Source: Sphaerodactylus townsendi | Lineage: Eukaryota | Assembly: GCF_021028975.2 (NCBI RefSeq) | Contig: NC_059439.1 | Span: 22,258,001 to 22,322,000 of the forward strand | DNA length: 64,000 nt | Direction: 5' to 3' | Part shown: in pieces, positions 4,798-52,289 of the stretch | How positions within the stretch are numbered: position 1 is the first letter of the stretch | Layout of the letters: the number at the start of each line of letters is the position of its first letter | Notes under the pieces: generated by a model | Told to the model about the DNA's origin: nothing | Seen by the model: only the letters and a program-made list of their open reading frames with translations | Databases searched by the model: none | Translations under genes and position numbers: made by a program

Positions 4798-5951
4798 CTG
4801 CGTTTGCAGAAAAACATCATCGAAACGTGTGGAACTGACTTGAAGTGAATCAGAAAATTGGTCTGCTTTTCCTGACTGGCAGTAACTTACCAGGGTCCCA
4901 GGTGAAAGCCTTTCACACCACCTTCTACCTGATCATGGCAGCAATGGCAGCCCTTCCTCTCACCCCAGGTGGCTGGCAGCCCATATCTACTCTGACTGGC
5001 AAAGTCCTTTCAGATTATTTAAAACTTGATCCTTTTAACTGGAGATACTGGGCACTGAACATTCTGTACACAATGCAGGTATACACCCAGTGAGTCCTTG
5101 AACCAGGATGCTACTAGTTCATACTCTGTGATTGTCTGGTAAAAAAACACTAGTATGGTTTGCCATTTATAAAACCACAGGTTGGGGTCCAGTTCTAAGG
5201 CTAAGAAGATTTCCTTTATCCTGTTTCTCGGCTATTACAAAAACTGATTTCTGGATTTTCTCTGATGGAAAGTTTGTTGTTTTAATCATTCTCCCATCAA
5301 CTGATGGAAAGCAATGGGCAAAGCCCACTGTGGGCAGGGATCTCCCATTCCCAGTGGGCATATAGTAGAAAGAGCAGAAAAGCTGGTTCCAAGAACATGA
5401 TATCTAATGTCTGGGTTTCTAGAAACTTTCCAGGGTTTTCTGGGCACATCAGATATACAGTGATTAATCCCAAAGATGTACAGCATCTGAGTGGTCTGAG
5501 GAAACGTGACGAGGAGGACAGATGCATGCAGGGAAGCAGGGAGGCTTTTCTCTGTTGAACAGTGGACTGGGAAGTCTACCACAACCACAGCAACAGGTAA
5601 ATAGGTGTGGGACTCCAATGAGCTTCTAATGATGCTATCCTGAGCATTATGAGAGTTCAGGAATTTTTGATCCGTCAGATGTTCCAAACTTTTGCGATTT
5701 GTTGGGGGATTGCTCAGTTTGTCCAAGCCACCCATCCTGAATGTACATTAAGAACTTTGAACGTAATATTTTTAAATCAGTTATTCATCACAGTTGCATT
5801 TATGGGAGTTAAAGTATTATTGAACTTTGGGAAGATATTGGGGGATGCAGCCTTCTCAAGAACAAAGGAAGCTTAGGAACTGATGTTTGTGATGCAGGTA
5901 GACTTCAGTCAAGTAGCTCCTTCGAGTTGTGAGTTTTCGAGAGTCAAAACT

Positions 5952-6406
5952 TGTAGTCGAGCCACGTGGTCAGCGCAAGAACGAGACGAGACGCGGAGAT
6001 AACATCTGGTGGAGATCGCCAGCAGCGGGAGCGCGGAGGTCCGCGTTCCTAGTGAATCTCCCGCGTGCTGGTTCCTGGCACCTTTTATTATGATTCTAAT
6101 GGGGGCGTGTAGAGGGGCGGGACGGGAGAGTCCGGGAGAGCGGGAGAGCGGGAGATCATCATGTGATGCATGATCTCACCTGGCTGCTACGTGCGGAGAA
6201 GAGCGTAAGCGTCTGGGCCTAATCCTCACCTGGGGGCAGATCATTGTCCCTTTGTCTGGGACGCCCGGTGACTGAGCCAGATAGTTCATGACCCGTGACT
6301 CATACGGGGTTGAGGAGTGGGGGTGCGGTGCGACCAGAAGGCCGTAGGTCCGTTGGTGTGCCAACGTTCTACCACGGTGCTGCTGGGTCAGCAGTGCATT
6401 ACTACA
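5952..6406 (-). repeat. 3' LTR (455 bp)
   Basis: Direct repeat of 10736-11182; TG..CA ends; AATAAA on minus strand at 6084-6089; GC boxes; CpG-rich. Confidence 0.97.
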
Positions 6407-6420
6407 TCTCCTCCTTTTTT
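6407..6420 (-). promoter_or_regulatory. Polypurine tract
   Basis: AAAAAAGGAGGAGA on minus strand abutting the 3' LTR. Confidence 0.92.
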
Positions 6421-6567
6421 ACATTTTAGAAGGGGGACCGAAATGCTAGGGGGTGATTTAAAGGGACGCTTGTCTCCTCCGCCGTCTGGTCAAGCTGACC
6501 GAGCTGCTTGTGTAACATTAGAACTTGGTTGCGGGGTAAGGGAAATTCGAGGGGCTTCTTACACACG

Positions 6568-7200
6568 TTAGGCAATATTAGATACACATTGAATGAAACA
6601 AGATCCGACGACGAGGCATACAATCAAACCAATGCAGAGCTGTACGATAGCACTCAACCATCCTCCTGGCAGCCAGCTCCAGAGGGCTGACCACCAATGG
6701 GGCAATACATCGTATTTCAGATTGGATACAATTTCTTGCAACTCACGCACTTTCATATGAATCAACTGGGAATTATCAGAGAGATTAAAGCAACACATAT
6801 TATGTACATTCTCACAACCCTGGTGATGCAATAACAACAAACAATCAATGGCGGCACGATAATCTAAAGTCGCTTGACGAAGTTCCTGCTGCTCGGAGGC
6901 CAGGGCATCCAGAGCAATGGAGGTGGAGTTGATGGACTTCGCAAGGGCACAGGCCAGCCGGCCAATAGTCTTGGTGTTACAGGAAACAAGTCCGGGGACT
7001 CCCACAAGGGAAGTTGCGAGGGAAACACACTCCGCCTTGGTTAGAGCCGCCGCGTCGCTCCGGCAAGGGGGGTCGAGGGGAAGGGCGGAGCGGCGGCTGT
7101 GCTTGGGCTTCCGGGGTGAAGCCTGAGGCAGAACGATGGTGAAGCGGTAGCAGAGAGTTCCGGCAGACACAGGCGGAAATGCAGCAACAACAAATAACAT
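6568..7200 (-). CDS. env: Mini-Env (210 aa from first ATG): short signal peptide + ASLV-like TM subunit, SU essentially absent
   Basis: MLFVVAAFPPVSAG leader; basic KHSRR/S site; Cys-flanked internal fusion peptide (LDPPC...IGRLAC); heptad/ISD-like LDYRAAIDCLLL; CX6CC (CENVHNMCC) followed by FNLSD; Trp-rich segment and TM helix. The ORF track starts at a TTG (7332); the first in-frame ATG is at 7200. Confidence 0.88.
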   Translation of the reverse strand: MLFVVAAFPPVSAGTLCYRFTIVLPQASPRKPKHSRRSALPLDPPCRSDAAALTKAECVSLATSLVGVPGLVSCNTKTIGRLACALAKSINSTSIALDALASEQQELRQATLDYRAAIDCLLLLHHQGCENVHNMCCFNLSDNSQLIHMKVRELQEIVSNLKYDVLPHWWSALWSWLPGGWLSAIVQLCIGLIVCLVVGSCFIQCVSNIA

Positions 7201-7869
7201 AACTTCTAAAATTAAGGCATGCAATAACTTCAGCAATAGTTGGTTCACAGTAAGCAATAAAACATGGCTAAACGATACATAGGCTGGATGATGTACGGAA
7301 GGAAGGCAACCCGTGGTTGCATAATTGTCCAATGCATGGCTCTTGCTGTTTGACTACCAAAGCTACAGAGCGATGGCGTTAGAGTCCATGGATTTCTCAA
7401 GAGCGTAGGGAGAGCTACTGATAGTCTTTAGCATTGCAGGTTCAGTGGTTCTCACGAGCAAGGTTGTGAGAGAAGGCGTGTTCCAACAATATTCAAGCGG
7501 CTGAAAACAGCAGAGAGTTCCAAGGGTTAATCTATCAGGAATGTTCCTGGCTGCAATTCCAAGTTTCAGCCAGGGGGCGGCAGAGAGGGAGAGAGAATGG
7601 CGACTGTGGATGAGGGGCAGCGACACACAGTATCAAACTCTGAGCCATAGCTGGCCCAGGCTGCCGTTCCCCCCCGGGGTGGCCCCAGTGAGGGCTGCGA
7701 TCTCCGTGGAAGAATGGGTGTGCTGGCTCCAGAGAGATCCCTCCCATCTCGGCCCAGGCTGGGGGGCAATCGGGCCCTCTCAACAGGGCGGCTGGGTTGG
7801 ATCCTCCAGGGAGGCCCGCTCCATCTCCGGGATGGGGCTGGCCTGGCATGGCGAGCTGGACTCCTGTAT

Positions 7870-7950
7870 GGAAGAGAAAAACAAGCAACGCTTTTCCCCC
7901 AGGGGGTTTGCGCGCTGGCTGGGTTAGTAGATGACAATAGAGGACCTGAG
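7870..7950 (-). pseudogene. Possible eroded integrase C-terminal remnant
   Basis: QVLYCHLLT then, frameshifted, TPWGKSVACFSLP; weakly resembles class II IN CTD V.Y(K/R)D.LT...W...L.WGRGYAC.S; expected position. Confidence 0.35.
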
Positions 7951-8241
7951 CCCTGAGTGGGGGGGGGGGGGCGAGCAATTTTTGAATGATTGATAGAGAA
8001 CGATACTTTGGATATGGTCTGCTGGATGAGACCTTGATTGGGTCGATAGGGGGGGGGGAACTACTCCCCTTTCTTTCGTTTGTTTTGGCCAAGCTTTCCT
8101 TAGGCGCAGTTGGCCCATTCCGACAACGATCGCTTGCAACATTCGAGGCGTTAAGAGACACAAGGCAGGGAATTGCCCGAAGGCTTAGATGGACGAAGGA
8201 AAAGGTTCTCGAGGAGAGGTTTGAAGAAGAGTTTTGAAGGT

Positions 8242-10542
8242 TTAAACTAAGATGGAGGCGGCTTGAAGCAGGTCCCATCGGTATCCTAGGGAGCACGTAC
8301 GAGCTGTGTCCCGTTTAAGGCGGATGCTGTAATGGGCGAAGCCTTTCAAGGCATTGGCACACATAATCAGAAGGAGAAAAACTTTAATTGAAGCACAAGA
8401 GCATAGCTTAGAAGCAATGGAAAAATCCCTCTTATGAGGGGAGAACTTTAGGGGTCTCTTGAAAGGGGGCAAGACATACAGAACATACATAGGCATACAG
8501 AGCACATATAAAGTAACGAGGAGGATTGCAACTCTGATTTGAGATCTTGCTCTCTCTGAGGTACTGACGATTTTGCTGCCGCTGGGAGCTTTGAGCTTAG
8601 GGCTTTGCACAGGCTCAGAGGCTATGAGATCTGGTTTGAACCTTACAGCTGGAGAGGGCCAAGGGGGCTTCTTCTTCACGAAGGACTTTTGGCTTAAGGC
8701 CATTGTGCGAGCATCTTCCCCTTTCCATGCCTCATTGTCCTGTAGATTGGCTATGGGGCATTCTGAGGAGGGTTCAAAACGGTAGTCCTCTTCCGTCAGC
8801 ATTTCTTTCTGTTGCAATTCAGTGACTGTGGACTCTGCAGAGATTTTGAAATGCGTGCCATTCTGGGGCACTGGCGGAGGCATGGTGACTTTGGAAGTAG
8901 AAGGGGTTAGCAGAGCAGGAAGTATAGACGTAGGGGGGGAGCAAGCTGGCAAGACCAGCCCAATGGTCTCCGTGGGGATGGGATCACTATACTGAGCTGG
9001 GGCAGCGAAGATCTCATGGGGGAGCTCCGGGGGAAGGGTTTGAGGTGCGGATCTTGGTTCCGGGCTGGGGAGATGCCCGGGCACGGGCCTCCCCAGCGGG
9101 CATTGGGAGCGCCCGGTCTTAGACTTTCCTGGGGGTCTTCGCCCTCTGGGGAGAGACCCTCCTCCGTCAGGGTTGTAGGCCCCCCCGCCGGGCAGCCTAC
9201 AATTCCTCCGGAAATGTCCTGGCTTGCCGCAATTGAGACACTCGTCTCGGGGCTGTCTCATGGCAGCGGAGAGGGCGGCGGCTAGAAGGCTGGCTTGATG
9301 GGCGAAAGACCCGATATCCTGGCAAGCTTTGAGCATGTCGGCCAGCTCGGGGTTCCTTCCTAGGCCTGTGATCGCTTTGCGGCACTCAGCGGAGGCGTTC
9401 TCCTTGGCAAGGCGCTTAAGGAGTTCGCCCTGGGCCTCCTCGTTGTCAACCTGCCTCTTGAGGGCCTCCTGGAGCCTGTTCACAAACTCAGCATAGGGCT
9501 CTTGAGGCTTCTGCCGGGTGCTAGAAAAACTTTGGGTTGGCTGTCCGGTATTGGGGACTTTCAAAAACGCCTTGTAGGCGCATTCAGAGGCGACCGTAAG
9601 GGTGGCCACCGGCAGGACAATCTGATTGTTGGGGTTACTGAAGGCATCAAAGCCGTAAAGCTGTGCGGCGGTGTAGGCGCCGCCGGAGGCGGCTGCCTTG
9701 CTAAAGCATTGCTGGCGGAACTCGCTCTCCCAGATCACAAATTGTGCAGGGCTCAGGAGCATGCGGAAGGTGGTCTTCCAGTCGTCCGGAACCATTAAGT
9801 GATTCCTCGCGATTGCCTCTAGCATGCCTCTCACGTAGGGGCTAGTGATTCCTACGTCTCGCATCGCTTTGCGGAGCTCAGTGAGGATGTTATAGCTTAA
9901 GGGGCGGTACTCGACAACCCGCCGAACAATGCCACCCTCCCCCTCGGTATCTGTGAAGTGGACGGGGCACAATGCGAGAATATCGGCATCGTCTTCCGTT
10001 AGGGTTTCTTTCTTTTGCAGATCGTGGCTAATACGCTCTGCGAGAGTTTTGAAACCCGCGCCATTACGCGGCGCTGACGGAGGTGCGGTGGCTTCGGAAA
10101 ATGAAGGCGGAGCAAGGGGAGGGGGCGGCTGAGCCGCGGGAGAATTTGAAATGGGCGGAGGAGCAAGGGGGGCAGAAGGAGGACAGGCGTCCAATTTAGT
10201 GGATAGAGAAAATTCCGGGGCTGAAATTGAAGGTGAAAGATCGAAAGGAGGGCGGCCTATAGCAAGGGAGCCACAGGTCTGCAGGCTGATGGCGACATAG
10301 CATTGTCTCCATGTCAGTAGCCGTGACATCGGCGTGCGAGGCTCTGTGCGAAGAGTGCGCCCGATGTTTTCCCAGTCCTTAAGATTCAATGTCCCCCCCT
10401 CGGGGTACCATGGACACTGAGCTTCAATCTCCTCAACCAGTTTGCGCAGCTCCCCTCTCTTTATGGAGACCCTGCCGCATTTCGCTAACGCTTTCAGTTC
10501 GTTAACGTGCTTGTCATAAGCCCTGCTTTTGCAAGCTCCCAT
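8242..10542 (-). CDS. gag: Betaretrovirus-type Gag (MA, PSAP late domains, CA, single-knuckle NC) with ~310-aa C-terminal extension, 766 aa
   Basis: MGACKS myristoylation start; CPWYPEGGTLNLKDWENIG beta-type matrix motif; two PSAP motifs; MHR TRQKPQEPYAEFVNRL; ENASAEC; CLNCGKPGHFRRNC CCHC knuckle; ORF uninterrupted to TAA at 8242. Confidence 0.95.
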   Translation of the reverse strand: MGACKSRAYDKHVNELKALAKCGRVSIKRGELRKLVEEIEAQCPWYPEGGTLNLKDWENIGRTLRTEPRTPMSRLLTWRQCYVAISLQTCGSLAIGRPPFDLSPSISAPEFSLSTKLDACPPSAPLAPPPISNSPAAQPPPPLAPPSFSEATAPPSAPRNGAGFKTLAERISHDLQKKETLTEDDADILALCPVHFTDTEGEGGIVRRVVEYRPLSYNILTELRKAMRDVGITSPYVRGMLEAIARNHLMVPDDWKTTFRMLLSPAQFVIWESEFRQQCFSKAAASGGAYTAAQLYGFDAFSNPNNQIVLPVATLTVASECAYKAFLKVPNTGQPTQSFSSTRQKPQEPYAEFVNRLQEALKRQVDNEEAQGELLKRLAKENASAECRKAITGLGRNPELADMLKACQDIGSFAHQASLLAAALSAAMRQPRDECLNCGKPGHFRRNCRLPGGGAYNPDGGGSLPRGRRPPGKSKTGRSQCPLGRPVPGHLPSPEPRSAPQTLPPELPHEIFAAPAQYSDPIPTETIGLVLPACSPPTSILPALLTPSTSKVTMPPPVPQNGTHFKISAESTVTELQQKEMLTEEDYRFEPSSECPIANLQDNEAWKGEDARTMALSQKSFVKKKPPWPSPAVRFKPDLIASEPVQSPKLKAPSGSKIVSTSERARSQIRVAILLVTLYVLCMPMYVLYVLPPFKRPLKFSPHKRDFSIASKLCSCASIKVFLLLIMCANALKGFAHYSIRLKRDTARTCSLGYRWDLLQAASILV

Positions 10543-10549
10543 ACTCACC
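10543..10549 (-). promoter_or_regulatory. Major splice donor directly before the gag ATG
   Basis: Minus strand CCG|GTGAGT-ATGGGA matches the donor consensus. Confidence 0.75.
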
Positions 10550-10571
10550 GGTGTTCCGTCGGACGAGAGAG

Positions 10572-10670
10572 TGTCCTAGGACGCGAGTCTCTGGATGCGC
10601 CGATCCAGAGGACAGGCGATACCGAAACGGAGGTCCCTGGATGCGCCGATCCAGCGGACTTCGGTATCGC
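10572..10670 (-). promoter_or_regulatory. Twin leader stem-loops (candidate packaging/dimerisation signal)
   Basis: CTGGAT-GCGCCG-ATCCAG hairpin occurs twice; the second is closed by an 11-bp stem GCGATACCGAA/TTCGGTATCGC; 10-bp palindrome GTCCTAGGAC at 10573-10582. Confidence 0.6.
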
Positions 10671-10714
10671 GGCCCTTTCCCAGGCGACGGTGAGCAGGGT
10701 GGAGGTTCGAGGAT

Positions 10715-10732
10715 TCCCGGGTTTCGGCACCA
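10715..10732 (-). promoter_or_regulatory. Primer binding site, tRNA-Phe
   Basis: TGGTGCCGAAACCCGGGA, 3 nt downstream of the 5' LTR; 18/18 complement of the vertebrate tRNA-Phe(GAA) 3' end TCCCGGGTTTCGGCACCA. Confidence 0.93.
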
Positions 10733-10735
10733 GCT

Positions 10736-11182
10736 TGTAGTCGAGCCACGTGGTCAGCGCAAGAACGAGACGAGACGCGGAGATAACATCTGGTGGAGAT
10801 CGCCAGCAGCGGGAGCGCGGAGGTCCGTGTTCCTAGCGAATCTCCCGCGTGCTGGTTCCTGGCACCTTTTATTATGATTCTAATGGGGGCGTGTAGAGGG
10901 GCGGGACGGGAGAGTCCGGGAGAGCGGGAGATCATCATGTGATGCATGATCTCACCTGGCTGCTACGTGCGGAGAAGAGCGTAAGCGTCTGGGCCTAATC
11001 CTCACCTGGGGGCAGATCATTGTCCCTTTGTCTGGGACGCCCGGTGACTGAGCCAGATAGTTCATGACCCGTGACTCATACGGGGTTGAGGAGTGGGGGT
11101 GCGGTGCGACCAGAAGGCCGTAGGTCCGTTGGTGTGCCAACGTTCTACCACGGTGCTGCTGGGTCAGCAGTGCATTACTACA
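10736..11182 (-). repeat. 5' LTR (447 bp)
   Basis: Identical to the 3' LTR except 10828/6044, 10837/6053 and one missing CGGGAGAG unit. Confidence 0.97.
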
Positions 11183-12172
11183 AAAACTTCATCGGATAGG
11201 TTTTTGTGAAATTCATTCGTTCAGTTCCCTATACTTTCTGAAAAAAGGGCAAACCCTCATCTCCAAAATGGTGGTCTCCATGTATGAGAAATATAGCTGC
11301 TGTTTGTATTTCTTCAGCATCTAGATTGTGCTAGGCGCTGAAATGATGTGCGTTGTTCCAATTTAACATTTTTTGCTGTGAATGATGCTTACATTTCAAC
11401 TATACTTTTTATTCATATTTTTCATAAGTAGAAGCACAAGTCGCTGTTTTCTCCCCGGGTCACCGAGAGTTCACCAAATGCTGATAGACTGTGTTCTGTA
11501 TTAATGGTGCTCAGCTAACGGCCTCCCAATTCTGCCAGATCCTTTTATTTAAAGAAATAGCTCTGTATTTCACGGGAAAATATTTTGCAAAGCTTTCCCT
11601 GCTGATAATTTGTCTGGGAGGAAAGACAGGTTTAATTATTTATATTGACTGGGAAAGTTGGGTATTAGATGCGTTCAATAAGATCTGTGCTTTTGTTTAT
11701 ATAGAAATATATGGAGGGAGATGAATACCCAGATCATTGAAAAAGCAGATTTCTTGTTATTGAATCGAATATAAGCAAGTAGCTTTTCTTTAGATAATTA
11801 TAAAATTTGGAGCATGACATAGAAGGTGGATAGCTATAGTTCATGGCTCAAAGGCTATTTAGTTCTTCTAAAAATGATAGCTATGCCTTTACTGTAGCAC
11901 AAGGTACAAAGAACTGGACTTTCATCAGGAATACATGTTGTATTTCAGCCTCACTTCCTGCAGTTTAATATTGTAAAAGCTTGTATATGGCTTGAATGTT
12001 GAACCTGCTATGGTTCTGCACTCCCCTATTTTTGGACAGACACAAAGTGGAACCCATATGCAACCTTTTTTGCCATTTCCAAGACAATCCATCGGTGGAA
12101 AGTGGTGATTCACTGATAAGTCATACATGCAAGGGAGTGAGAATACTTGTAGAAGGGCTGTGGTTCAGAGTG

Positions 12173-16773: not shown

Positions 16774-17929
16774 TACAGTTGGGTGAAGCAGTCTGAATGT
16801 TGGCTTTCAGTTCAAGTTCAAGGTTAACCTCTCCATTCAGCATTGAGTCGCCTTCCTTAAAACTCTGTTTATGAGTTCATTAGTGTAGAAATGAGTTTTT
16901 GCCCATGTGGATCCCTTGAATGAATGAAAGTGAAGTACGAAGCCAGGGAGGCAGTCTCTGTGTAATTTATAGGTTTCATTCATCCAGGATATGGTCTGTG
17001 TGCCCTGGAATCCACATACATTCACTGTCAAGATGTCACGGCCACTGAATGCTCAAAGGCAAGGGTGGGACCACTTAATGTGATCCCAGTTCCCTCTCCT
17101 TGCTCCATGTTTCCATTTCTAAGGTCTTAAGTCATTGTTTCTCATGCTAACTTAACTGGGGGCCAGAATCATGACCTGGAATTTCCCCCCACAACTCTCA
17201 TGATGTTTATAGGAAAGACATTGAGTTGCATGGGTTACATTTTCCAGGAGGGGTTGTGGCTCAGTAGTAGAACACCTGCTTTGCATGTAGAAAGTTTCAA
17301 GTTCAATCCCTGGCATCTCCAGACAGCTAGTGTTGGGAAAGATTTTTCTCTGCTTGAGTTAAGGGATGTATGAATGCCTTGCTTGTTTCTGTTGTGGGTC
17401 TGTTTTGTTTCACTCACTTTTGTCACTGGCATTTCCAGTATGTTTGTCATTCATCCAGCATTTGAGTACACCGCTTAAGTGCAACCGATAGCAAAACAAG
17501 TTTTAATGGTTCTACCCAGTTTCATTAGTAAGGTCAGGAAAAGAGATGAATATAGTTCCATCTTGAGCAGCTAGAACTCACAGAAGAAACTGAATTTTTT
17601 AAACAAATTATTTCACAAAAATTTGCTAGTAGAGATCCTGGGAGACCACTGGCAGTATGACAGGATTAAGCTAGATGAACCCATAGCATGACTCAGTATA
17701 ATTTAGTTTTGTATGCTCAGATGAATTCCCTCATGGTAACAAATCTCATAATAGAAAATAACATGTGCGTAGCCCTTTTCAAGCCCTTACATTTTTGGCA
17801 CTCTTGTTTTGCATAATGAGAGAGTGCAGTATCCACAATCCTTCCAATATGTGCGCTTGCCATTTTATGTGGACAGAGCAACGTGCTATGCACTTGGAAA
17901 TCAGTGCAAGGCTTTTTGATGCCCTAGGC

Positions 17930-20205: not shown

Positions 20206-21614
20206 NNNNNNNNNNNNNNNNNNNNNNNNNNNNNNNNNNNNNNNNNNNNNNNNNNNNNNNNNNNNNNNNNNNNNNNNNNNNNNNNNNNNNNNNCCAAAAA
20301 TCACCACTGAGCTTTTTGAATAAACTACGATGCTCCCTCGTGCATAGGACCCCTAGGGGCAAGAAGAGAATGAAAAAGGAAGAAAGGATAAATTGAGTTC
20401 ACAAGCAAAACATTTGATATTGCTTATGTGGCCTGAAATACACATACACCTTTTTAGCAGATTGAAGAGCCAGATTCAGCAACTGGTAAGTAGCAGAAGA
20501 ATTTGAATCTGAAAGTCTGCATTTATTTGGCCTGGGTCCAGTCCATGACTGAATCCATGTAGCAACCTTACACTTTAAAAAGGAGGGATATAAATGTAAG
20601 TGGTTAGATCCTATCTTTTTTTCTTCTTGTACAAGAAGTGGGGGAAGTGATCTCACCTGGTGGCCCTCTGCTGCAACTTTTTTCCACACGAGGCCCACAA
20701 TTCCTGGCATATCCCTTGTGGGAGTCAAACACGGCCACTTTTCCTTCTAGCACCAACAGATCCAATCCCATAAATAAATAGTGAAGTATTAAACACCCCT
20801 AGTCCCTTAAACTAGTTCTATGCTACAGAGTCTATGGGTCACTCAATAAAGAACCTGCTTTGGTTTTAAAACATATCACTCCTCCATTTTAAAGGCTCTT
20901 TTAAAAATAATAGCTGTGTTAGGTAGGCATTCCATTTTTAAGTGCTCAACCCCCTCTAGTTGTCAGAAGCACCAGGGCAATTTTATTCAAATGAAAATTA
21001 GAGGTTCTTTTTTCCTCTTCAGAGGGAAAAATCTGATGTATTTAAAAGGCATTAAAATCAGCATAGTGATTTTTTTTAAAATTGACGTTTCATTCTTAGT
21101 TGTTGGACAGACGTTTTCTTTACATTTAGGCACAGATGTTTATTGTCCCTGATTCTTGGGATCATGGGAACTTCCTTGGATAAGAGCCATTTGGGACAAT
21201 TTTTAAAAAGTGGGTGAAATTGATACATGTTTCATAGTTCAAATAATTGTTAATGGAGATTTAACTGAACCGTGTGAGATGCAAAGAGGAGCAAAATAAA
21301 GATGTCTGTGATCCCCTCCTCTAGTCTTGAAGTATTGAGTGGAAATATAAGACATTATGGGAGGATTAGGAGTATAAAAATTAAGACAGAGTTATAAATT
21401 AAGAGCCTTTGCAGATGTTTTGGTGTTGGTTTGAGTGAAAAATCTTGTTGGATCCATCATATTATATCTGAAGTGATGAGAAATAATTCCTGAGTGTCAT
21501 GACCCACACATGTATGTAAGTCATCTTTTGCTTAGATTTACATGCATGTGTGAACCACACTGTCTCAGTAAATCACACCCATTGTCCTTCTTCATTTTTC
21601 TAACAGGGAACAAA

Positions 21615-22568
21615 ATGCCCAACCAAACCACAGAAACTGTTTTCATTCTTCTAGGTTTCTCTGATGTTCGGCAGCTGCAGCTTTTACACTTTGTGGCCTT
21701 TCTTCTCCTTTATTTGGCAACCATCATGGGGAATCTTATCATCATCATACTTGTAGCCCTCAACCACCATCTTCACACACCTATGTACTTTTTCCTGATG
21801 AATTTATCTATTGCAGACATTGGCAATATCTCAGTGAACATTCCCAAAGCTATGAGCAATTCTCTCATGAATACAAAAGTCATTTCCTATACAGAATGTG
21901 TTTCCCAAGTCTTTTTTCTCATCTTCTTTGCAATGACTGACTTGGTGCTCCTCACCGTCATGGCTTATGATCGCTATGTCGCCATATGCAATCCACTGCG
22001 ATATGAGACAATGATGAACGCTGGAGCCTGTGTTCAAATAGCAGCCGGTGCATGGATAATTGGAATTTTCTGTGCAGCATTACACAGCGGGGCCACCTTC
22101 TCAACCACCTTTTGCTCCAATGCCGTCCACCAGTTTTTCTGTGAAATACCACAACTGCTGAAACTCACCTGCAATGACAGTGATACAATGGAGTTTGGGG
22201 TCATTATATTTGCTGCCTGTGCGGCCTTTGGCTGCTTTTCCTTCATCATTTTTTCTTACATGCAGATCTTCACCAATGTGCTAAGAATTCCTTCAGTGCA
22301 AGGAAGGAGGAAAGCTCTTTCTACCTGCTTGCCTCACCTCATTGTTTTCTCTTTGTTCACCTTTACGGGCACCCTGGCTTACCTGTGCCCAACAAACAGG
22401 ACCCAAAATGATGTAGCTATGATGATTGCTGTTCTATATTCTGTGCTTCCCCCCATGATGAACCCGCTGATCTATAGCATGAGAAATCAAGAAATTAGAT
22501 CTGCACTGTGGAAGCATTTTGGACGGAGCTTATGTACTAGTCGGCAAATGTCAACTATTCTCTTTTAG
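21615..22568 (+). CDS. Olfactory receptor, class II family 14-like, 317 aa (OR-A)
   Basis: MPNQT N-glycosylation site, GN, LHTPMYFFL, MAYDRYVAICNPL, FFCEIPQLLKL, KALSTCLPHL, PMMNPLIYSMRN; acceptor TTTTCTAACAG just upstream; candidate donor GTAAGT at 21516. Confidence 0.96.
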   Translation: MPNQTTETVFILLGFSDVRQLQLLHFVAFLLLYLATIMGNLIIIILVALNHHLHTPMYFFLMNLSIADIGNISVNIPKAMSNSLMNTKVISYTECVSQVFFLIFFAMTDLVLLTVMAYDRYVAICNPLRYETMMNAGACVQIAAGAWIIGIFCAALHSGATFSTTFCSNAVHQFFCEIPQLLKLTCNDSDTMEFGVIIFAACAAFGCFSFIIFSYMQIFTNVLRIPSVQGRRKALSTCLPHLIVFSLFTFTGTLAYLCPTNRTQNDVAMMIAVLYSVLPPMMNPLIYSMRNQEIRSALWKHFGRSLCTSRQMSTILF

Positions 22569-22969
22569 TCTAGTGAATTCAGCATTGTGTATCTTTTTAA
22601 TGTGTCCTATAAGAAGATAGTAAAATTTGTATGAATCTTCTTTTCTTCCAAGAAATAATGGTATGCATATAATAGTATACTTTTCCCCAGTCCAAGGTAA
22701 TTGGTCAATCAATCAGTCTTTATTATAGTCATAGATCCGCATAGACCAGAATAAGATAGATATGATACAATTAAAGCAATTTAAAAATATTGAAACTGTA
22801 AATTTTTATCTAGAAGGATCTACTGGCAGAAGAAAATTGGAAACAGAAAAATGGAATGGGAACATAAAGGGGATGGGATAAGAGCATAAATGTTAGTTTA
22901 TTCTCTTTTAATCTATTGAATCCCACAGGGTGTATCTTTGTCAAAGGTGTACATTCTGTAAGATACTTA

Positions 22970-23110
22970 GGCTCATTCCACACATGCAGAATAATGCACT
23001 TTCAAACTGCTTTCAGTGCTCTTTGAAGTTGTGCGGAATAGCAAAATCCACTTGCAAACAGTTGTGAAAGCAGTTTGAAAATGCATTATTTTGCGTGTGC
23101 GGAAGGGGCC
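22970..23110. mobile_element. Harbinger-like MITE, left-arm specific
   Basis: 3-bp TSD TTA; empty site in the right arm near 53440. Confidence 0.88.
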
Positions 23111-23574
23111 TTAGATTTATATGGATCATCTTTTCTTCCAAGAACTAATGGCATATATATGATAATTCACTTTTTTTTCCCAGTCCACGGTTACTTGGTT
23201 TTAAATGTAAGCAATACATTTAGGATTTTTAAATGGGATCATTGCATTAAGTCTTAAATATTTCATAGCTGAAGAATCCCGGGTAATGTGTGCTTTGGTC
23301 CTATGCATGTTTACTAGCAAGGATAATACTTTCTTCCTACAAAATGTGCATAGAATTACAGCCTTGTGTATGCTAAGTGCCATCTAGCTGCTTCTGATTT
23401 ATGGTGACCCTATGAATTAATGAGGGGAGCGAAGGCAGCATGTTATAGCCCAGCAAGTTTCAGTGACAGAGTGGAGTTCCAATCTGTTTATTCCAGATCC
23501 TAGTTGAACTCTCTACTACATAAGATTATGTGATGTGGGGAAAAAAACAATTTTGCATTTTCTGTTTGCTGAAC

Positions 23575-24235
23575 AAAGCACTCTTTGGAAATGTACCAGG
23601 AGAGATGGTCCTGTAGGTGTGTGGGCCCGGGTATATTAGTACAAGCACTTTGAATTTGATCCAGTGCTCCACCTGGAGCCAGTGAAGCTGGTGGAGTACT
23701 GGTTGGATGTTTGCCCACCATGGGGTTCCTGTAAGGACCCTCGCTGCTGCATTCTAGACTAGCTGGAGCTTCTAGAGCAAACCCAATTCACTGCATACAG
23801 TGAATTGAAGTAGTCTAACCTGGAGGTGACTGTTGGGTGGATCACTGTTGCCAAACCAGCCCGGGAAAGATAGGGTGCCAGCTGCTTTGCCTGGTATTGA
23901 TGAAAAAAATGCTATATCAGCTATGTGTGCTATCTGAACCTGCATAGTTAAAGAAGTATCCTGGAGCACCTCCAGACTTTTAATAGTTGACAAAGCCCTC
24001 ACCTGGAGACTGTCTAGGGTTGGCAGCCAGCAATCCCCATCAAACCATGTCAATCCAGCCACATGTCCTCAGTCTTCATTGGATTTAACTTCAGTCAGCT
24101 CTCTTTTATCTACCCCTCCACAGTCTCTAAACAACTGACTAGAACTTCTGGGGCAGCTCCTGGATAACCCCCCATCAACCGATAGGTGTGTCAGTAGCTT
24201 ACTGATGACAATCCAGTTAAAACCTCCAGATAAAC
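23575..24235 (-). mobile_element. Decayed L2 LINE fragment (shared by both arms)
   Basis: The right-arm copy translates to IHPTVTSRLDYFNSLYAGLPL; followed by QLVxNAAARVLTG..HIQPVLHQLHWL. Confidence 0.8.
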
Positions 24236-24246
24236 CTGGTGAGATT

Positions 24247-24439
24247 CAGAGGTGGGATCCAACCAGTTCTCACCCACTTCTCTAGAAGTAGTTACTAATT
24301 TTTTCTGAGTGCCGAGAAGGAGTTACTAAAGCAACCTCCCTGCCCAATAGGGACTGGAGGTGTGTATGTGCGGTGGCGCCACTGTTTGAATCCCACCACC
24401 ATCGGAACCTGTTATTAAAATTTTTGGATCCCACTACTG
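24247..24439. mobile_element. hAT MITE predating the duplication
   Basis: 8-bp TSD GTGAGATT; TIR CAGAGGTGGGATCC / GGATCCCACTACTG; also present at 52086-52279. Confidence 0.85.
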
Positions 24440-24849
24440 GTGAGATTATATTAAACATATAGATATTGACACATATAGATATCAAACAGTATTGTGAAAT
24501 AACCGATCCTTGTGGAACTCCGCGCACCAACAAACAGTGAGCTGAAGTCTTCTCACCAATTGCTACTCTCTGTCCTCAACCCTGGAGAAATGAGCACAGC
24601 TCATTGCAAGGTTTTCCCTTTGCTTTCGGTTATACTTTTATCCAGCATTACAGCAAGAATTGGGCAATATTTCCTTTCTACAGTTCTCAATAAACATAAG
24701 GGATCATATTTCTTCATATGTTCTCCCATGCATCAAAGATTAAGAGCATTCAAGCATTATATTCATTTTATCAGTCACACAGATTGTTATATCATCCCTG
24801 TAGCAGATTCTCTGTGTCAGGGATCCCCAGCATAATTAAACATATGAAC

Positions 24850-24985
24850 CAGTGGTGGGATTCAAATAATTTAACAATAGGTTCCAGTGGTGGGATTTAA
24901 ATCATTGAACAATTGATTGTGTACAAGAGGAATTTTAACAACCGGTTCTGCCGAAGTGGTGTGAACCTGCTGAATCCCACCACTG
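24850..24985. mobile_element. hAT MITE, left-arm specific
   Basis: TIR CAGTGGTGGGATTCA / TGAATCCCACCACTG; TSD ATATGAAC/ATCTGAAC; absent near 51535. Confidence 0.8.
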
Positions 24986-27900
24986 ATCTGAACACTGTTG
25001 GAATTTGAGGCAGGGTGGTAGGTGCTGCTATAAAATTGCTGCCACAGACAACAGAGTCAAGCACACATATTCAAGAGGAAGGAGGATGGAGAATTAAAAC
25101 ATACATGTAGAAAAAAAGATGACTAATGTGGGACATGGATGGTAAAACATAAAAAGAGAAGTTCAGAAGGGGAAAGGTGCTGTGGTAGTCTGCTACTCAC
25201 TAACTCCCATCCTATCAAAGCATGAGATTTGACTCACAGCTGATCTGTGTGCTCTGTTTATGGGATCCTTCTCCAGAGAGTACTGGGGAAGATCCGAGTG
25301 ACAAGCCTGGTTATTTGTATGAAGAATCAAGCTGAGGCAGGGAAGGCATTGACACAGGTCTAATGCAAGGATATTAGCCAGAAACCTATACAGCCAAATC
25401 CAATGAAAGGGAACAAATTAGCCAATAGAGCTGGTGCAGGGCCACAAAGGTGCATTTGCTCCCTTCGTCAGTGTAAGGAACAGCCCTGCCAGCATCTGGG
25501 CACCATACAACTCTGCAGTGGCAGAATCCAGAAATGGGCACCACTGTGGAACTATGCTGGCATCTGAGAAGTCACTGGCATGGGGTAGGAGGCAGGCTGT
25601 TCCCAGGGGTGGAGCTGACTGTAGTCAGCTTTCACCCAGGATTTCAAGTCAGGAATGCTATGGCCAGGGCCTCAGATTTACATCACCCCAAAGGTGGTAT
25701 AACTCCATACATCTCTATGGAGGGCTTTCAAGGCAGCCAAGGTTTTTTTTCTGTTTTGCAACCTCCCCACACCACCTGAAAGCCCTCTGGAGGCAGTGTA
25801 GGTGGGTGGTGGTGAAGCCATTCTGGAGAGTGACAATGGCATCATCTCTGGTCACCACTGTCTCTGGATTGGACTGCCTGTATAATCCTCTGAATCTCTG
25901 TTCTGGGGTAAATTAGATCTGCAATGAGAGGGAGAATTTAGATAAAATTGCCACTACTACTTAAGAAAACCTACAGGTCCTTAATCTTTGGCTGAATACA
26001 AGCCCATGTTCCCTGCCTTCTTCAGAGATTTAGGTGGGCTGCAGTAATGCACCATCCCTACAATATCAAGTCAAGACCCAAGAATTTACCTGGGAAGGTG
26101 AATATGTCCCAGTGTGGAGGACTATAGATCATAGAAATAGATAAGACTGAAAACAGGAGAAGGGTCAAGAAGTACAAGTTGGGAAATGTAGCTTTCCCCC
26201 CTAGAAGAGTAATAATATAATTGAATTGTTGGGATCAAGTCTTTAGGATAAGCTGAACCACAGGATGATAACTGTTGAAACAATGTATTTATCACTTGTT
26301 GTTCCATAAAGAAATTTTCAATTTGGCTCTCATCCCTAATTCCATATTGTAAAACAGGTTTAGTTATGAAATGGTAAGCTTAAAGGCCTGTGTTATGCGT
26401 TGTGCTATGTATATTATATAAGGGCAAGAGTAAAATATGGCCACTTAGTTCTGAAGTTTCCATGCTCAATCTGATGGGATAGTATTTGCATCCTGCTGGA
26501 TGGATTAGATCGGGCAGGATGTGAACAAGTAATTTCTTTTTCACTTGAATTTGTGAACATGGATCAATATCCTTATAGACTAGCATTGGATAGAGAAAAA
26601 TCAGGCTGGACTTTGATCCCCTGGCATCTGTCAGACAATAGAGAAAAATCAGAAATCTGGAGACAAAATGCAGATATATTTTTGGTTGAAAAAATAAAGG
26701 AAATAACCTTCTAATTTTTCATTTCTTAAAACCTGGCACCCCAGATGACCACCTATCTATATGGTCAGGCTGGACTTTGATCCCCTGGCATCTGTCATAT
26801 TTGAACTCAAAGGGTCTGATTTGAAAGATCTGATTGAGATTCTTGATATCTAGTTGATACCCAAGTAACCATGCTTGATTTCAAAAATTAATTACACATT
26901 TAATGACCACAAGATACACATATCTGGGTCCCTGGGTGTTACACATCCCAACATTTCCATACAAAATGCAAATATTTTCCTGCAAATGAGAGAGACCAAA
27001 GAGCTTTATTTCTGTTCATGTTATTCATGTCATTTCTTCATCTTTCTTGCAGCCTCACACACCTTCTTTGCACATCCTGGCCTAGCATATTGATTTTGTG
27101 TCACTTAGCAACTGGATTTAGTCTTAATAAAAGAAACCTGATGTAATAGGTGTGGATTTTTCATCTCATGACATTGATCTTATCTCATGTACTCAGACAA
27201 GTTGTATTAATTATCAAGTTATGTGAGTTAGAAAAACCGAAGAAACAATATACCAGAGGGAAAAGGGTTTCAGCCTCAAATTGTACTTAGGTGAGCTGAA
27301 CTCTGGGAATAAGTTACCAAGTACACAATATAAATGGATCTCTTTCTCATCTCTACAGCCATTTTGGTACTGGTTAGATAAAAATCAGATATTTTAGCAA
27401 TTCCCACAACGAGATCAATATAATGACTTGGGTGAAAGGATGTATGTATTTAAGCAAATGGAAAAGAAATTGATTTTGATGTTATCAAAGTTTTTCCATA
27501 TTTTCTTCTTATGTTTTTGTAGTGCGGATGTCTTTTTCTCTGCATCACAGCTTCCTGAACACAAGTCTGTTCTGAATTTTGTGTTTACACTTCACTCTCC
27601 TCAACAATCTTTCAATATGAGCACATGGAATGAAGACACAATATTTGAGAATTCAGTGACTATCTCAGACGAATCTGACACAGGAGATCTCAGGTGGAAA
27701 AGAAGAAAATAGAACAATTTGGAATGCTGCCTCCTCCAAGATATTCAACATTTAAAATACTAGACCATTCATAAGTGAGTGTGTTTGTGTGTATAGAATA
27801 ATTACAGAAAAGTTAATCTTTTTCCATCCACTATTACTAGTTGAAATTGTTGCACTGAGCAAAAATCCAAAGTTGCAACAGAACCTTTAAGTATAGAATA

Positions 27901-28268
27901 AGAAATTGGATTGTTGGTCAGGAAAATATCCACTGCCTCATTTTTCATGGATAGATCATACTATATGCAACACATCCATGCATGCATAAGCTGCGGAAAT
28001 ATCAAGTCAGTTTGTTGATGTCTGATGTAGTTTCTGACTAAATAGTCACAGACTATAAATATGAAAATTGTCCAAGAATATGTCAGTGTATTTTAAACAT
28101 TTTAACATGAGACTTTTCTTGAGGACAGCAGAAAGAGAAACATTGTTTTGTGCATGATGAGGAATGTCTGATTTACTTTATATTCAGTTCAGTACAGAAC
28201 TGCCTGGAAGACAAGAAATGTAAAACAAGCAAGCCTGACTAATAGCTAATCGATATTACTGGAATAAA

Positions 28269-29267
28269 ATGATTTCTGTAATATATCCTACATATAGTCT
28301 GAAGCTGGATGTTGAGGGTACAATACCCAATCTTACCTCCACCTCTCACTTCATGCTCTTGGAATTGTCTGACATCCGAGATCTACAGATGTTACACTTC
28401 TTTGTGTTCTTCGCAGTATACTTGACTGCAGTGACTGGCAATCTTCTCATCATCCTTGCTGTAGCCTTGGACCATCATCTGCACACCCCCATGTACTTCT
28501 TTCTCATGAATTTGGCCATTCTGGACCTTGGCTCAGTTTCTGTCATGGTGCCCAAAGCCATGGTCAACTCCCTCATGAACAGCAGGTCAATTTCTTATTC
28601 AGGATGTGTAGCTCAAGTTTTCTTCTTCATATTATTTGTAGGGACAGATTTAGCCATTCTAACAGTAATGGCGCATGATCGCTATGTGGCTATCTGCAAT
28701 CCACTGCAATATGAAACCATTATGCACAAAGATGCCTGCATTCAGATGGCAGCCAGTGCATGGATTGTTGGTATACTCAATGGTATGTTACACACTGGAG
28801 GAACTTTTGCTATCACTTTTTGCTCCAACATGATTGATCAGCTCTTCTGTGAAATACCACAGATGTTAAAACTCGCCTGTTCAGATATGTATCTAGTGGA
28901 AGTTGGTTTTGTTATGTTTAGTTGTTCCCTTGCACTAGGATGTTTCGTCTTCATCATTGCCACCTACTTGCAGATTTTTGCAGCAGTGCTCAGAATCCCA
29001 TCCGTGCAAGGTCAGAAAAAAGCCATCTCCACTTGCCTTCCTCACCTCACTGTGGTCTCTTTACTTGTATGCAGTGGAATCTTTGCCTATGTGAGACCTC
29101 GCAGTTACTCTTCATCTGTCCTGAATGCTCTTTTTGCAATAATTTATGCAGTAATCCCTCCTTTGCTCAACCCATTCATTTACAGCATGAGAAACACGGA
29201 AATAAAGACTGCTTTATTGAAACTGTCAAATTGTGGGCATTTTCCTAAAATACAAAAATTGGGTTGA
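28269..29267 (+). CDS. Olfactory receptor, family 14-like, 332 aa (OR-B); start codon uncertain
   Basis: LHTPMYFFL, MAHDRYVAICNPL, KAISTCLPHL, PLLNPFIYSMRN; the codon aligned to the paralogue's ATG is ATA (28323). Confidence 0.9.
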   Translation: MISVIYPTYSLKLDVEGTIPNLTSTSHFMLLELSDIRDLQMLHFFVFFAVYLTAVTGNLLIILAVALDHHLHTPMYFFLMNLAILDLGSVSVMVPKAMVNSLMNSRSISYSGCVAQVFFFILFVGTDLAILTVMAHDRYVAICNPLQYETIMHKDACIQMAASAWIVGILNGMLHTGGTFAITFCSNMIDQLFCEIPQMLKLACSDMYLVEVGFVMFSCSLALGCFVFIIATYLQIFAAVLRIPSVQGQKKAISTCLPHLTVVSLLVCSGIFAYVRPRSYSSSVLNALFAIIYAVIPPLLNPFIYSMRNTEIKTALLKLSNCGHFPKIQKLG

Positions 29268-30949
29268 CCCATCTCGTCCTTAGAATTAGGCTTGTTTATT
29301 AGGTAAAGCTGAATTAGTAAAAAATGCAGAAAAAAACTTGATTCTTCATTGATCAGGTTTTATTCAAGCCACAATGAAAACCCCTGAGCCAAATATTTGT
29401 TAAGAAATATTGTTATTTGTTAGAAAACTTAACAAACCAATTGTTTGTTAAGTTTGTTAGAAAACTTAACAAACCAATTGGCTTGTTCATCTAGAGACCC
29501 AAACTAGCATTTATCCCTGAAAAATTAATTATAGACTATGATCTATTCTTGGTAGTACTATTAACATCTGAGCAGAGATTCCCGATATAATTTTTAATAA
29601 ATCTTTATTATGGAGGTGGGTTTGTTTTGATTATTGGAACACAATCCAGCTTTTAAAATGCACAAAAACATCATTTTTACAATGTTTACATTGATATATT
29701 GATATCAGTATCACAGTATAATAAATATAAATAACAAACACTGAAATAATAAATCTGAAAAAATTCCTTGTCCAGTTCCAACCCACTGTTTCCATTCTCT
29801 GACAGTAAGGATGAAGGTCTGAAATAGCAGGACGCAGGCTACTTGGAACAATGTGATTCCCCTTCGGAACACTCTCCTGATTTCCAATCACCGCTTTCCC
29901 ATGCGCTGTTAAATGCAAACTGTTCTGCTCCTCATTTTTCCTAGCACATAGAAGGCAGGAGGAGAAGGGGGATCAAGGGCAGTAAACAGGTGATGGAAAA
30001 ATGATCTGGCAGAATGAGGAAGAAGCAGGAAGGGTCATTCACAGCAGGGAAGAGGAAGAAAGTGGTTTCTACAACAGTGCAAGGGAATGGGAGGGATGAA
30101 GCTAGGTAGGCTGCCAGTGGGTGGAGGGAAGATGTCAGGTCAAATCTCTGGTCACTGTGTTACCTGCCTTCGCTCTGTTGATGAAGAACATTAAAGAGGC
30201 ACTTAAAGTGAAGTTCCTTGGTGTGGGGAAAAAGGAAACTGAAAGTGGGCTTGGGGCAGAACATCTGTACAAGATATCTTGTCTTTTGCATCACAGCAGA
30301 TACCTTGCACACAATTGGTTTTTGTTAGAACACAGTAAAAGGAAATCTACGTATTACACACAAATTAAAATTCCAGGCTCCTTTATCTGAGATTCAGCTC
30401 AGGGTTGGCCGAACCCTGTTGTGCCTGTTGTGGTAGAAGGAAGGGAGATAAGCTTGTATGCCACCTTGATTCTCCTTACTGGAGGGAAATGTCAGGCATG
30501 AACATTTGATTTTAAAGATCTGAATTTGATTTTAAAAATCCAAGTAATCAGACTTAATTTTACAAATTAATCACACATCTTACCACAATATGGCAAGTAT
30601 ATCTGGGTCTCTGAATGTCAGGCATCTCAACATTTCCATACAGAGATATATACATTGAGAGAGATGAAAGAGCTTTAATTCTGTACATGTTATTCATGGT
30701 ATTTCTTCTACTTCTTCCATAACTCACAGACATCTTTTTTTCACATCCTAACATATTGATTCTATGTCAATTAGCAGTTGGGTTTAGTCATAATGGAAGA
30801 AATCTAATGTAGCAATAGGTATGGATTTATTTCATGACCTTGATCTTATTTCATGTACTCAGACAGAGACATGCTATATTAATGATCAGGCTATGTTTGT
30901 TAGGAAAACAGAAGGAACAGTGTAGCAGAATGAAAAGGGTTTCAATCTC

Positions 30950-36690: not shown

Positions 36691-38477
36691 TAAGAACATA
36701 AGAACATAAGAACAAGCCAGCAGGATCAGACCAGAGTCCATCTATCCAGCTCTCTGCTACTCGCAGTGGCCAACCAGATGCCTTTGGGAGCTCACATGCA
36801 GGATGTGAAAGCAATGGCCTTCTGTGGCTGTTGCTCCCGATCACCTGGTCTATTAAGGCATTTGCAATCTCAGATCAAAAAGTTCAAGATTGGTAGCCAT
36901 AGATCGACTTCTCCTCCATAAATCTGTCCAAGCCCCTTTTAAAGCTATCCAGGTTAGTGGCCATCACCACCTCCTGTGGCAGCATATTCCAAACACCAAT
37001 CACACGTTGCGTGAAGAAGTGTTTCCTTTTATTAGTCCTAATTCTTCCCCCCAGCATTTTCAATGTATGCCCCCGGGTTCTAGTATTGTGAGAAAGAGAG
37101 AAAAATTTCTCTCTGTCAACATTTTCTACCCCATGCATAATTTTATAGACTTCAATCATATCCCCCTCATCCGTCTCCTCTCCAAACTAAAGAGTCCCAA
37201 ACGCTTCAGCCTCTCCTCATAGGGAAGGTGCTCCAGTCCCTCAATCATCCTCGTTGCCCTTCTCTGCACTTTTTCTATCTCCTCGATATCCTTTTTGAGA
37301 TGCAGCGACCAGAACTGGACACAGTACTCCAAGTGCGGTCGCACCACTGCTTTATATAAGGGCATGACAATTCTTGCAGTTTTATTATCAATTCCTTTCC
37401 TAATGATCCCCAGCATAGAGTTTGCCTTTTTCACAGCTGCCATGCATTGAGTTGACATTCCCACGGAACTATCAACTAAGACGCCCAAATCCCTTTCCTG
37501 CTCTGTGACTGATAGCACTGACCCCTGTAGCGTGTATGTGAAGTTTGGATTTTTTGCCCCTATGTGCATCACTTTGCATTTTGCTACATTGAACTGCATT
37601 TGCCATTTTTTAGCCCACTCACCTAATTCATCAAGGTCCGCTTGGAGCTCTTCGCAATCCTTTGTGGTTCTCACCACCCTACATAATTTGATATCATCTG
37701 CAAACTTGGCCACCACGCTGCCCACCCATACTTCCAGGTCATTTATGAATAGGTTAAAGAGCACTGGTCCCAAAACGGATCCTTTTGGGACACCACTCCC
37801 TACATCTCTCCATTGTTAGAATTTCCCATTTACACCCACTCTTTGTTTCCTGTTTCTCAACCAGTTTTTAATCCATAGGAGGACTTCCCCTCTTATTCCT
37901 TTATTGCTCAGTTTTCTCAACAGTGAGGAACTTTGTCAAAAGCCTTTTGGAAATCCAAGTAGACAATGTTCACTGGTTCCCCCTTATCCACATGCCTATT
38001 TACACCTTCAAAGAACTCTAGTAAGTTTGTAAGACAGGATTTGCCTCTGCAAAAGCCATGCTGACTCTTTCTCAGCAGGTCTTGCTTTTCTACATGTTTT
38101 ATAATTTTATCTTTAATGATAGATTCTACTAATTTACCAGGAACAGATGTCAAACTGACTGGCCTGTAATTTCCTGGGTCCCCCCTAGATCCTTTCTTAA
38201 AGATTGGTGTGACATTGGCCATCTTCCAGTCTTCAGGGATGGAGGCTGATTTCAGGGATAAGTTGCATATTAAAGTGAGAACATCAGCAATTTCATGCTT
38301 GAGCTCTTTAAGAACTCTTGGGTGAATGCAATCTGGGCCAGGGGATTTGGTAGCATTTAGTTTATCAATGGCTGCCAGAACTTCTTCCTTGTCTACCACT
38401 ATCTTCGCTAGTTCCTTGGATTCGCCTCCCAAGAAGCATAGTTCAGGTGCAGGAATTTTCCTTACCTCCTCTTGGGT
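36691..38477 (-). mobile_element. 5'-truncated CR1 LINE (RT and C-terminus), nested in an L2 3' tail
   Basis: KSPGPDCIHPRVLKEL, GNYRPVSLTSVPGK, YLDFQKAFDKVPH, KFADDIKL, VRPHLEYCVQFW; (TTCTTATG)n tail. Confidence 0.95.
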
Positions 38478-38929
38478 ATTTTCCTTACCTCCTTTTGGGT
38501 ATTTACTAATGTAATCCACTCTGAGCCCTTGTGGGAGGGCGGTGTACAAATAAATAAATACATAAATAAATAATCTGTCTTCACTTTGTTGACGAAGAAA
38601 ATTATAATGGCACTTAAAGTGGTATTCCTTGACTTGGGGAGAATGGAAACTGAAAGTGGGTTTGGGGCAGAACATCTGTACAAGAAATCTCATCCTGACA
38701 GATGTTCACCTTTGCAGCACAGCAGACACCTTGCAAACAACTGGCTTTTGTTAGGACACAGTGAAGGGAAATCTACGTATTACACACAAATTAAAATTCA
38801 AGGTTCCTTCATCTGAGATTCTTTCAGGGTTGGCCGAACATTTTTTGCCACTCTAGTTGAATTAGCATGTCCGTTCCCAGGCAAATTAGAAGTCTGAATA
38901 GATGTATATTTTGTGTAAGAAATATTTCA

Positions 38930-45912: not shown

Positions 45913-46081
45913 CTCTAGATGAATGAGCCAATTGGTTTATTAAATTTTCTAAATATTTGGCTCAGGGGTTTTCATTGTGGCTTGAATAAATCCTGATCTG
46001 TGCCGAATCAGGTTTTTTTCTGCATTTTTTGCTAATTCAGCTTTACCTAATAAACAAGCCTAATTCTGAGGTCGAGATGGG

Positions 46082-52279: not shown

Positions 52280-52289
52280 AATCTCACCA

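Follow-up and report, generated by a model that had tools for sequence, protein, structure and literature searches.

The present analysis concerns a 64-kb stretch of the Sphaerodactylus townsendi genome (64,000 nt, hereafter the window), in which a provirus occupies positions 5952-11182 on the minus strand with its paired long terminal repeats (LTRs), target-site duplication (TSD), primer-binding site (PBS), polypurine tract (PPT) and splice donor intact. With moderate confidence, we interpret it as a non-autonomous class II (beta-like) reptile endogenous retrovirus (ERV) that was inserted into the germ line recently, depends on a helper and carries a recombinant interior. In the model proposed here, the RNA of the element would have been primed on tRNA-Phe and, very probably, copied and integrated by reverse transcriptase (RT) and integrase that a related helper supplied, and the unspliced RNA would yield a Gag fusion that, by analogy with the mouse intracisternal A-particle (IAP) 1Δ1 elements, probably aids its own RNA into helper-built particles. 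The segment from pro and pol to the surface subunit (SU) of env would have been lost from the element, and parts of an older relative that had decayed through methylation (a gag linker and the start of the transmembrane subunit, TM), present today as duplicates, may have been either retained or gained by template switching, such that fresher LTR-gag and TM-LTR ends would now enclose an old interior. The reading frames would owe their openness in part to the recent activity of the virus that supplied the ends, and in part to selection acting once the mosaic existed. This model is built on one copy of the element; neither a second copy nor an empty-site paralogue was found in the window, where the flanks of the provirus are unique.

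Everything that marks an integrated provirus (paired TG..CA LTRs, a short TSD, a tRNA PBS and a PPT) is present. The LTRs differ by 2 substitutions and one 8-nt indel, a slip of a repeat unit, giving a divergence of 0.45%; as both substitutions are C/T transitions in CpG, this value, if anything, overestimates the age of the insertion. The PBS starts 3 nt past the 5' LTR, and its identity was checked against a published tRNA-Phe(GAA) capture oligonucleotide, which it matches at 18/18 positions (PMC7810713, in its accessible portion); the splice donor lies 6 nt ahead of the gag ATG. The element contains no N, and an Rfam search over it returned nothing at the gathering threshold and a single chance-level match. 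A preliminary description of this DNA had listed the 6-bp TSD, TG..CA LTRs, 18/18 PBS, PPT and donor as intact and had read the two substitutions and the 8-bp slippage as signs of a recent insertion, all of which is borne out here.

No enzymes are encoded by the element, which is therefore unable to copy itself. Neither D[TS]G, [YF][MVLI]DD, LPQG nor TDNG motifs occur on the coding strand, in agreement with the earlier remark that protease DTG/DSG and RT YMDD are missing, and no Pfam pro or pol domain was detected in the six frames of 7199-9302. Turtle RT, RNase H and integrase matched the interior within the range of shuffled sequence (42/50, 9/60 and 13/60 shuffles, respectively, reached the score). 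Pol remnants in the interior were rejected on these grounds, and with them the “faint pol-like fragments” described previously. The single significant remnant is a pro/dUTPase piece, 9189-8863, aligned to the region of a lizard record that Pfam calls dUTPase; 0/200 and 0/60 shuffles reached its score, and 30/88 residues are identical, compared with 111/219 in the capsid (CA). With all cis signals intact and no enzymes encoded, a helper would have supplied RT and integrase, and the earlier proposal of mobilisation in trans is supported by both of these points and by a loss of pol that precedes the insertion. Because pol is absent, no RT phylogeny can be drawn, and the element is not assignable to a genus such as Betaretrovirus. 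Some marginal traces in the interior carry no correction for multiple tests and are not claimed: a pro-like trace at 7927-7731 (1/60 shuffles), an env-leader-like trace at 8537-8472 (1/100 locally and 27/100 over the whole middle), a third TM trace at 8218-8123 (1/100) and a duplicate cleavage region at 7614-7563 (6/300). For a duplicate knuckle region at 7844-7746 the count was 69/300, and a Rec-like Env leader remnant at 7849-7640, proposed by eye, was rejected, as 47/100 shuffles score as high.

The interior contains second, decayed copies of both gag and env, which the preliminary description had missed. In the gag-linker duplicate 145/213 nt are identical and in the TM duplicate 119/196, the latter with four frame-breaking indels; for neither did any of 200 shuffles score as high, and the alignments stand z 23-25 above shuffles. 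These duplicates have diverged by 32-39% and the LTRs by 0.45%, which rules out a simple post-insertion deletion: pol was not lost after the insertion, and the element must thus have been mobilised in trans. The earlier view therefore holds in placing the loss of pol before the insertion; however, the interior appears as a mosaic with older kin rather than as a pol decayed in place. The ratio of observed to expected CpG is 0.83 in the ends (188 CpG) and 0.51 in the middle (64 CpG; binomial p 0.0005), with 0.24 in the host flank. At codon 3|1 junctions, 52 CpG were observed in the gag core against 55.8 expected, and 10 against 22.5 in the tail of the Gag fusion. Among the aligned duplicates (three blocks, one of them marginal), 13 CpG of the outer copies face TpG or CpA, compared with 3 of the inner copies (p 0.02). 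Given this depletion and this direction of change, the inner duplicates look like older genomic residents than the ends. A donor of the older interior was not found, and over most of the middle there is no strong local RNA fold. A possible alternative, close to the preliminary description and one which we would entertain only tentatively, is one long-lived satellite lineage within which the duplicates arose and decayed, with gag, tail and TM selected for spread or interference. However, CpG accessible to synonymous change is undepleted in gag and depleted in the tail, a pattern not expected of a shared history, and the direction of CpG change suggests that the inner copies have resided in the genome for longer. 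The CpG contrast would also be expected of a one-off recombinant of the kind for which recKoRV offers a precedent, with the ends of a young virus around fossil debris and with frames inherited or open by chance, free of selection; we consider this unlikely, for reasons that come from the frames themselves. The features discussed here and below are collected in Table 1.

Table 1. Features of the provirus in the order of its own transcription, with positions numbered from the first letter of the window.
Feature	Coordinates	Strand	Description
TSD, provirus 5' side	11183..11188	.	6 nt
5' LTR	10736..11182	-	447 nt, TG..CA ends, one AATAAA
PBS	10715..10732	-	18/18 complementary to tRNA-Phe(GAA) 3' end
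Candidate packaging/dimerisation signal in leader	10591..10654	-	18-nt hairpin unit in two identical copies
Splice donor	10543..10551	-	directly upstream of gag ATG
Gag-fusion open reading frame (ORF)	8242..10542	-	766 codons, uninterrupted
Gag proper	9199..10542	-	myristoylation-type N-terminus, p10-type matrix (MA), two PSAP, CA, one zinc knuckle (second broken)
Decayed pro start, dUTPase-like	8863..9189	-	in frame with Gag; aligned to lizard record
Second, decayed gag MA-CA linker copy	8708..8948	-	68% nt identity to 9923-10136, ungapped core 8786-8904; Gag frame
Open end of Gag fusion, no source assigned	8245..8707	-	two hydrophobic segments, residues 673-691 and 713-731
Third open frame	7535..8314	-	259 codons; last 104 codons begin at ATG 7849
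Top splice-acceptor-like site	7863..7890	-	rank 1/113 YAG sites by crude pyrimidine score
Second, decayed env TM copy	7278..7474	-	61% nt identity to 6813-7024; stops and frame-breaking indels
Acceptor-like site before mini-env	7205..7230	-	5 nt ahead of ATG, rank 6/113 by crude pyrimidine score
Mini-env ORF	6568..7200	-	210 codons: drifted SU C-terminal end, alpha-like TM
3' untranslated stretch	6421..6567	-	env frame runs on to PPT with 3 stops in 54 codons
PPT	6407..6420	-	14 nt, abuts 3' LTR
3' LTR	5952..6406	-	455 nt, TG..CA ends, one 8-nt repeat unit more than 5' LTR
TSD, provirus 3' side	5946..5951	.	6 nt

The long frame that begins at the gag ATG is a Gag fusion and not a long Gag, as the Pfam Gag domains (p10 at residues 12-66, p24 at 212-333 and 336-406, a knuckle at 434-449) stop at residue 449, and among the 150 best relatives no match extends past residue 535. 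Of its 766 codons, some 470 belong to Gag, and the remainder consists of the dUTPase piece, the second linker copy and 154 codons to which no assignment could be made; the ESM Atlas gave no usable match for the tail. The earlier account of a beta-type Gag of 766 codons was accordingly right about the open frame and the type of Gag, but counted fused debris as Gag. The MA (Gag_p10) and CA (Gag_p24) are of beta type, and the best relatives of solved structure are HERV-K and a D-type-like Gag. Of two further class II hallmarks, the pair of zinc knuckles is reduced to one (7/9 relatives checked have two, and the remaining two have one and none), and a dUTPase at the start of pro is present only as the remnant, with no direct Pfam match. 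On its MA, CA and dUTPase remnant, as read from sequence, the element is classed as a class II (beta-like) ERV. Named relatives of its Gag come from a caecilian, turtles, lizards and snakes (38-59% identity for reptile and caecilian ERVs), with one tick record besides, and in a tree of the CA and nucleocapsid region (15 named rows) the element groups with a cobra record with support 98/99. The tick record (P0006, named for Nuttalliella namaqua) sits among the reptile ERV Gags; it might, as a guess, derive from a blood meal. Around the old gag-pro junction, the minus strand of 9101-9250 has a local fold that is more stable than in shuffled sequence (z -3.1, 25 shuffles).

The mini-Env retains the features of an alpha-like TM, with an internal fusion peptide flanked by cysteines, CX6CC, a membrane anchor and a short tail, and C46, C84, C129, C136 and C137 are invariant in a 12-row Env alignment. 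Both hallmarks of the avian gamma-type (alpha-like) TM given in the accessible part of PMC3758190, namely CX6CC after the immunosuppressive domain and a cysteine-flanked internal fusion peptide, are thus found in it. Its best PDB match is the TM of avian sarcoma and leukosis virus (ASLV; E 1.4e-11), which Foldseek also ranked first, weakly (E 0.05), from an AlphaFold model with a pLDDT of 65 and values below 50 at residues 1-45. Overall, it is closest to reptile Envs (44-50% identity; TM identities across relatives 37-50%), and a 13-row TM tree places it among reptile and amphibian alpha-like Envs, apart from avian leukosis virus (100/100). In alignments, residues 1-38 correspond to the C terminus of SU and not to the leaders of relatives; this N-terminus is short and hydrophobic, and the SU end may have been recruited as a signal peptide. 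Of the earlier “SU-less ASLV-type Env”, then, the 210 open codons and the ASLV match stand, but about 38 residues of the SU end are kept and the tree places the protein with reptile Envs. Neither the receptor-binding SU nor the furin cleavage consensus of an alpha-like Env is present in the mini-Env. A TM without SU cannot bind a receptor, and action as an entry protein by itself is unlikely; a role in mixed trimers or in immune modulation would be speculation. Expression would be from a spliced RNA. The closest Env relative seen was a record of 121 residues (P0182), 76% identical along a short part of the TM core. In addition, the leaders of two reptile alpha-like Envs (P0008 and P0010) match HERV-K Rec weakly (E 0.0005 and 0.005, neither reaching the curated cut-off), which may represent a beta-type leader on an alpha-type SU/TM.

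A third open frame, absent from the preliminary description, was also found. Its length was matched by 14/5000 local shuffles, its ATG at 7849 comes just after the best-scoring acceptor-like site, and it includes two long homopolymers. No homologue was found by Pfam, and the ESM Atlas returned no usable match. A programmed frameshift from the Gag frame into this frame was rejected, since the overlap contains no slippery heptamer in the right frame. The homopolymers, together with seven N gaps elsewhere in the window, might point to an assembly chimera of several copies; however, the element has no N, its TSD copies match, its LTRs are non-identical and copies 30-40% apart would not be expected to collapse in assembly, so that we find this explanation scarcely credible.

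Whether selection has acted on these frames bears on each of the readings. Neutral simulation at LTR divergence (n=1000) left the gag core open in 0.77 and mini-env in 0.89 of runs, and openness alone therefore proves nothing; to this extent, the selection-free recombinant with young ends is favoured, as a young insertion would leave its frames open anyway. However, the 285-codon tail of the Gag fusion is stop-free across three unrelated pieces and is made of decayed parts, which 0/20000 local shuffles reproduced (6/20000 for the last 180 codons), and after simulated decay of 10-15% with indels the tail was open in 0/1000 runs and no frame survived. Further, the SU end and the second knuckle needed time to drift, and over that time TM and CA remained open. 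Of the conserved columns, TM retains 0.93 (relatives 0.68-0.98) and the adjoining SU end 0.50, and the two TM copies differ mostly at third positions (37/65, versus 22/65 and 18/66 at the others), an excess that shows constraint on at least one branch, its timing unfixed. For MA, the conservation test had 0 usable columns. The open tail and third frame, the conserved TM beside a drifted SU end and the acceptor-like sites just upstream of two ATGs are also what the long-lived satellite lineage would predict; against it, in addition to the CpG evidence, stand the missing furin consensus and the lack of any sister protein in the protein searches. The selection on gag and TM suggested earlier thus receives support from single-copy signs, the open tail and the conserved TM, but openness may in part reflect recent acquisition from an active virus.

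Several observations also count against a young insertion with a recombinant interior. A wholly fossil interior should not stay stop-free over 285 codons, and the capture of old pieces consequently requires later or prior selection. The sliding CpG profile is uneven (0.79 near 7950), the lower CpG of the middle could instead reflect a donor virus of other composition or relaxed constraint, and for about 1.0 kb of the middle no source could be assigned. The contrast with the SU end stands on some 10 columns. Moreover, CA keeps 0.84 of conserved columns, lower than 9/10 relatives, and the terminal branch of TM is long (0.87 versus a median of 0.55), both of which suggest relaxed constraint. A doubtful further scenario, which joins elements of the foregoing, is a satellite lineage in which the current helper supplies fresh LTR-gag and TM-LTR ends while the old interior is kept, and in which debris would have given rise to three new products (a membrane-tailed Gag fusion, a spliced protein of 104 residues and an SU-less TM with a signal peptide from the SU end) that aid or interfere with helper particles. 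As to function in the host, a domesticated restriction gene, such as Fv1, Fv4 or enJSRV, is fixed or selected in the host, expressed and virus-blocking. Such a locus might be suggested here by the open Gag and TM frames, but LTRs 0.45% apart are too young for a pattern made by the host, there is no SU for receptor interference, and the exact proteins are absent from the protein collection, in which the neighbouring olfactory receptors are annotated; we regard it as very improbable. For the defective-interfering or antiviral role raised previously no evidence was found, leaving it unsupported, and the accompanying comparison with Fv4 fails because the receptor-binding SU is absent.

The window around the provirus carries an olfactory-receptor cluster and fragments of long interspersed element (LINE) RT, the latter at 37159-38705 on the minus strand. 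A large inverted duplication (20206-30832 versus 43358-56002), with olfactory-receptor genes aboard, has arms that are 91-98% alike in most blocks, and an older direct duplication has copies 6.4 kb apart and about 81% alike. A tRNA-like Rfam match of 40.5 bits at 17250-17321, not called by ARAGORN, is probably the head of a short interspersed element (SINE), and the flanks of the provirus may contain a gecko-type SINE. GC-rich tandem arrays lie at 60688-61047 and 56113-56295, with periods of 133/112 nt and 46/36 nt.

In mice, ERVs that depend on helpers are a major source of insertional mutations. In searches of an open-access library, we found no description of this element or of a comparable anatomy, in which new ends enclose an old interior and two or three frames are open, and almost nothing on comparable helper-dependent reptile ERVs. 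The insertion indicates that a beta-like lineage with an alpha-like env integrated recently in a squamate host, which implies an active helper, and the presence of gag and env sequence of both ages within one element provides an internal control by which decay may be separated from selection. Should selection on the SU-less TM or on the membrane-tailed Gag be borne out in sister copies, the element would offer a natural experiment on the retention of coding capacity by defective retroviruses. The pairing of a beta-type gag with an alpha-type env is not new, since reptile and caecilian relatives combine them; those relatives carry two knuckles, a full SU and, where predicted, pro-pol. Alpha-like Envs are widespread in reptiles (PMC13568524, in the portion available), and an alpha-like Env has been paired with a beta-like pol in caecilians, as stated in an available section of a preprint that cites the primary paper (bioRxiv 10.1101/2024.07.05.601823). 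ERVs that lack pol, depend on a helper and keep an open Gag fusion are likewise known, as described in the accessible sections of reports on mouse IAP 1Δ1 (PMC6466679, PMC7411935) and chicken EAV-HP, or ART-CH (PMC12523071, PMC4607243). IAP 1Δ1 is a non-autonomous class II element in which an internal deletion created an open Gag fusion and for which enzymes act in trans, and the present element shares with it the lack of enzymes, the intact cis signals and the open fusion. However, the IAP 1Δ1 fusion, whose role in cis has been shown and is extended here by analogy only, joins gag to pol, with no env, whereas in the present element gag continues into a dUTPase remnant and duplicated debris, no pol is left and a TM frame persists. 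EAV-HP, in which the whole of pol and a portion of an alpha-type env are deleted and for which spread by way of a helper has been proposed, is the nearest alpha-env precedent, although it is avian and has also lost part of gag, while MA, CA and the first knuckle are whole here and the interior holds decayed duplicates. In recKoRV1, according to the accessible text of PMC6112702, young ends surround sequence of an older, degraded element, and helper integrase inserted the whole with a normal TSD, an anatomy that the present element resembles; the ORFs of recKoRVs are disrupted, however, and their donor is dissimilar, whereas the present element has inner pieces related to its outer genes, with two or three frames open. 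SERV-K/MER11 is, in the part of PMC11379458 available, a beta-like ERV clade with a segment captured from an older relative, but the captured segment, close to the 3' end, has been tested as an RNA-export element, and no such function was seen here. Set beside these systems, the element is one locus of a known helper-dependent strategy.

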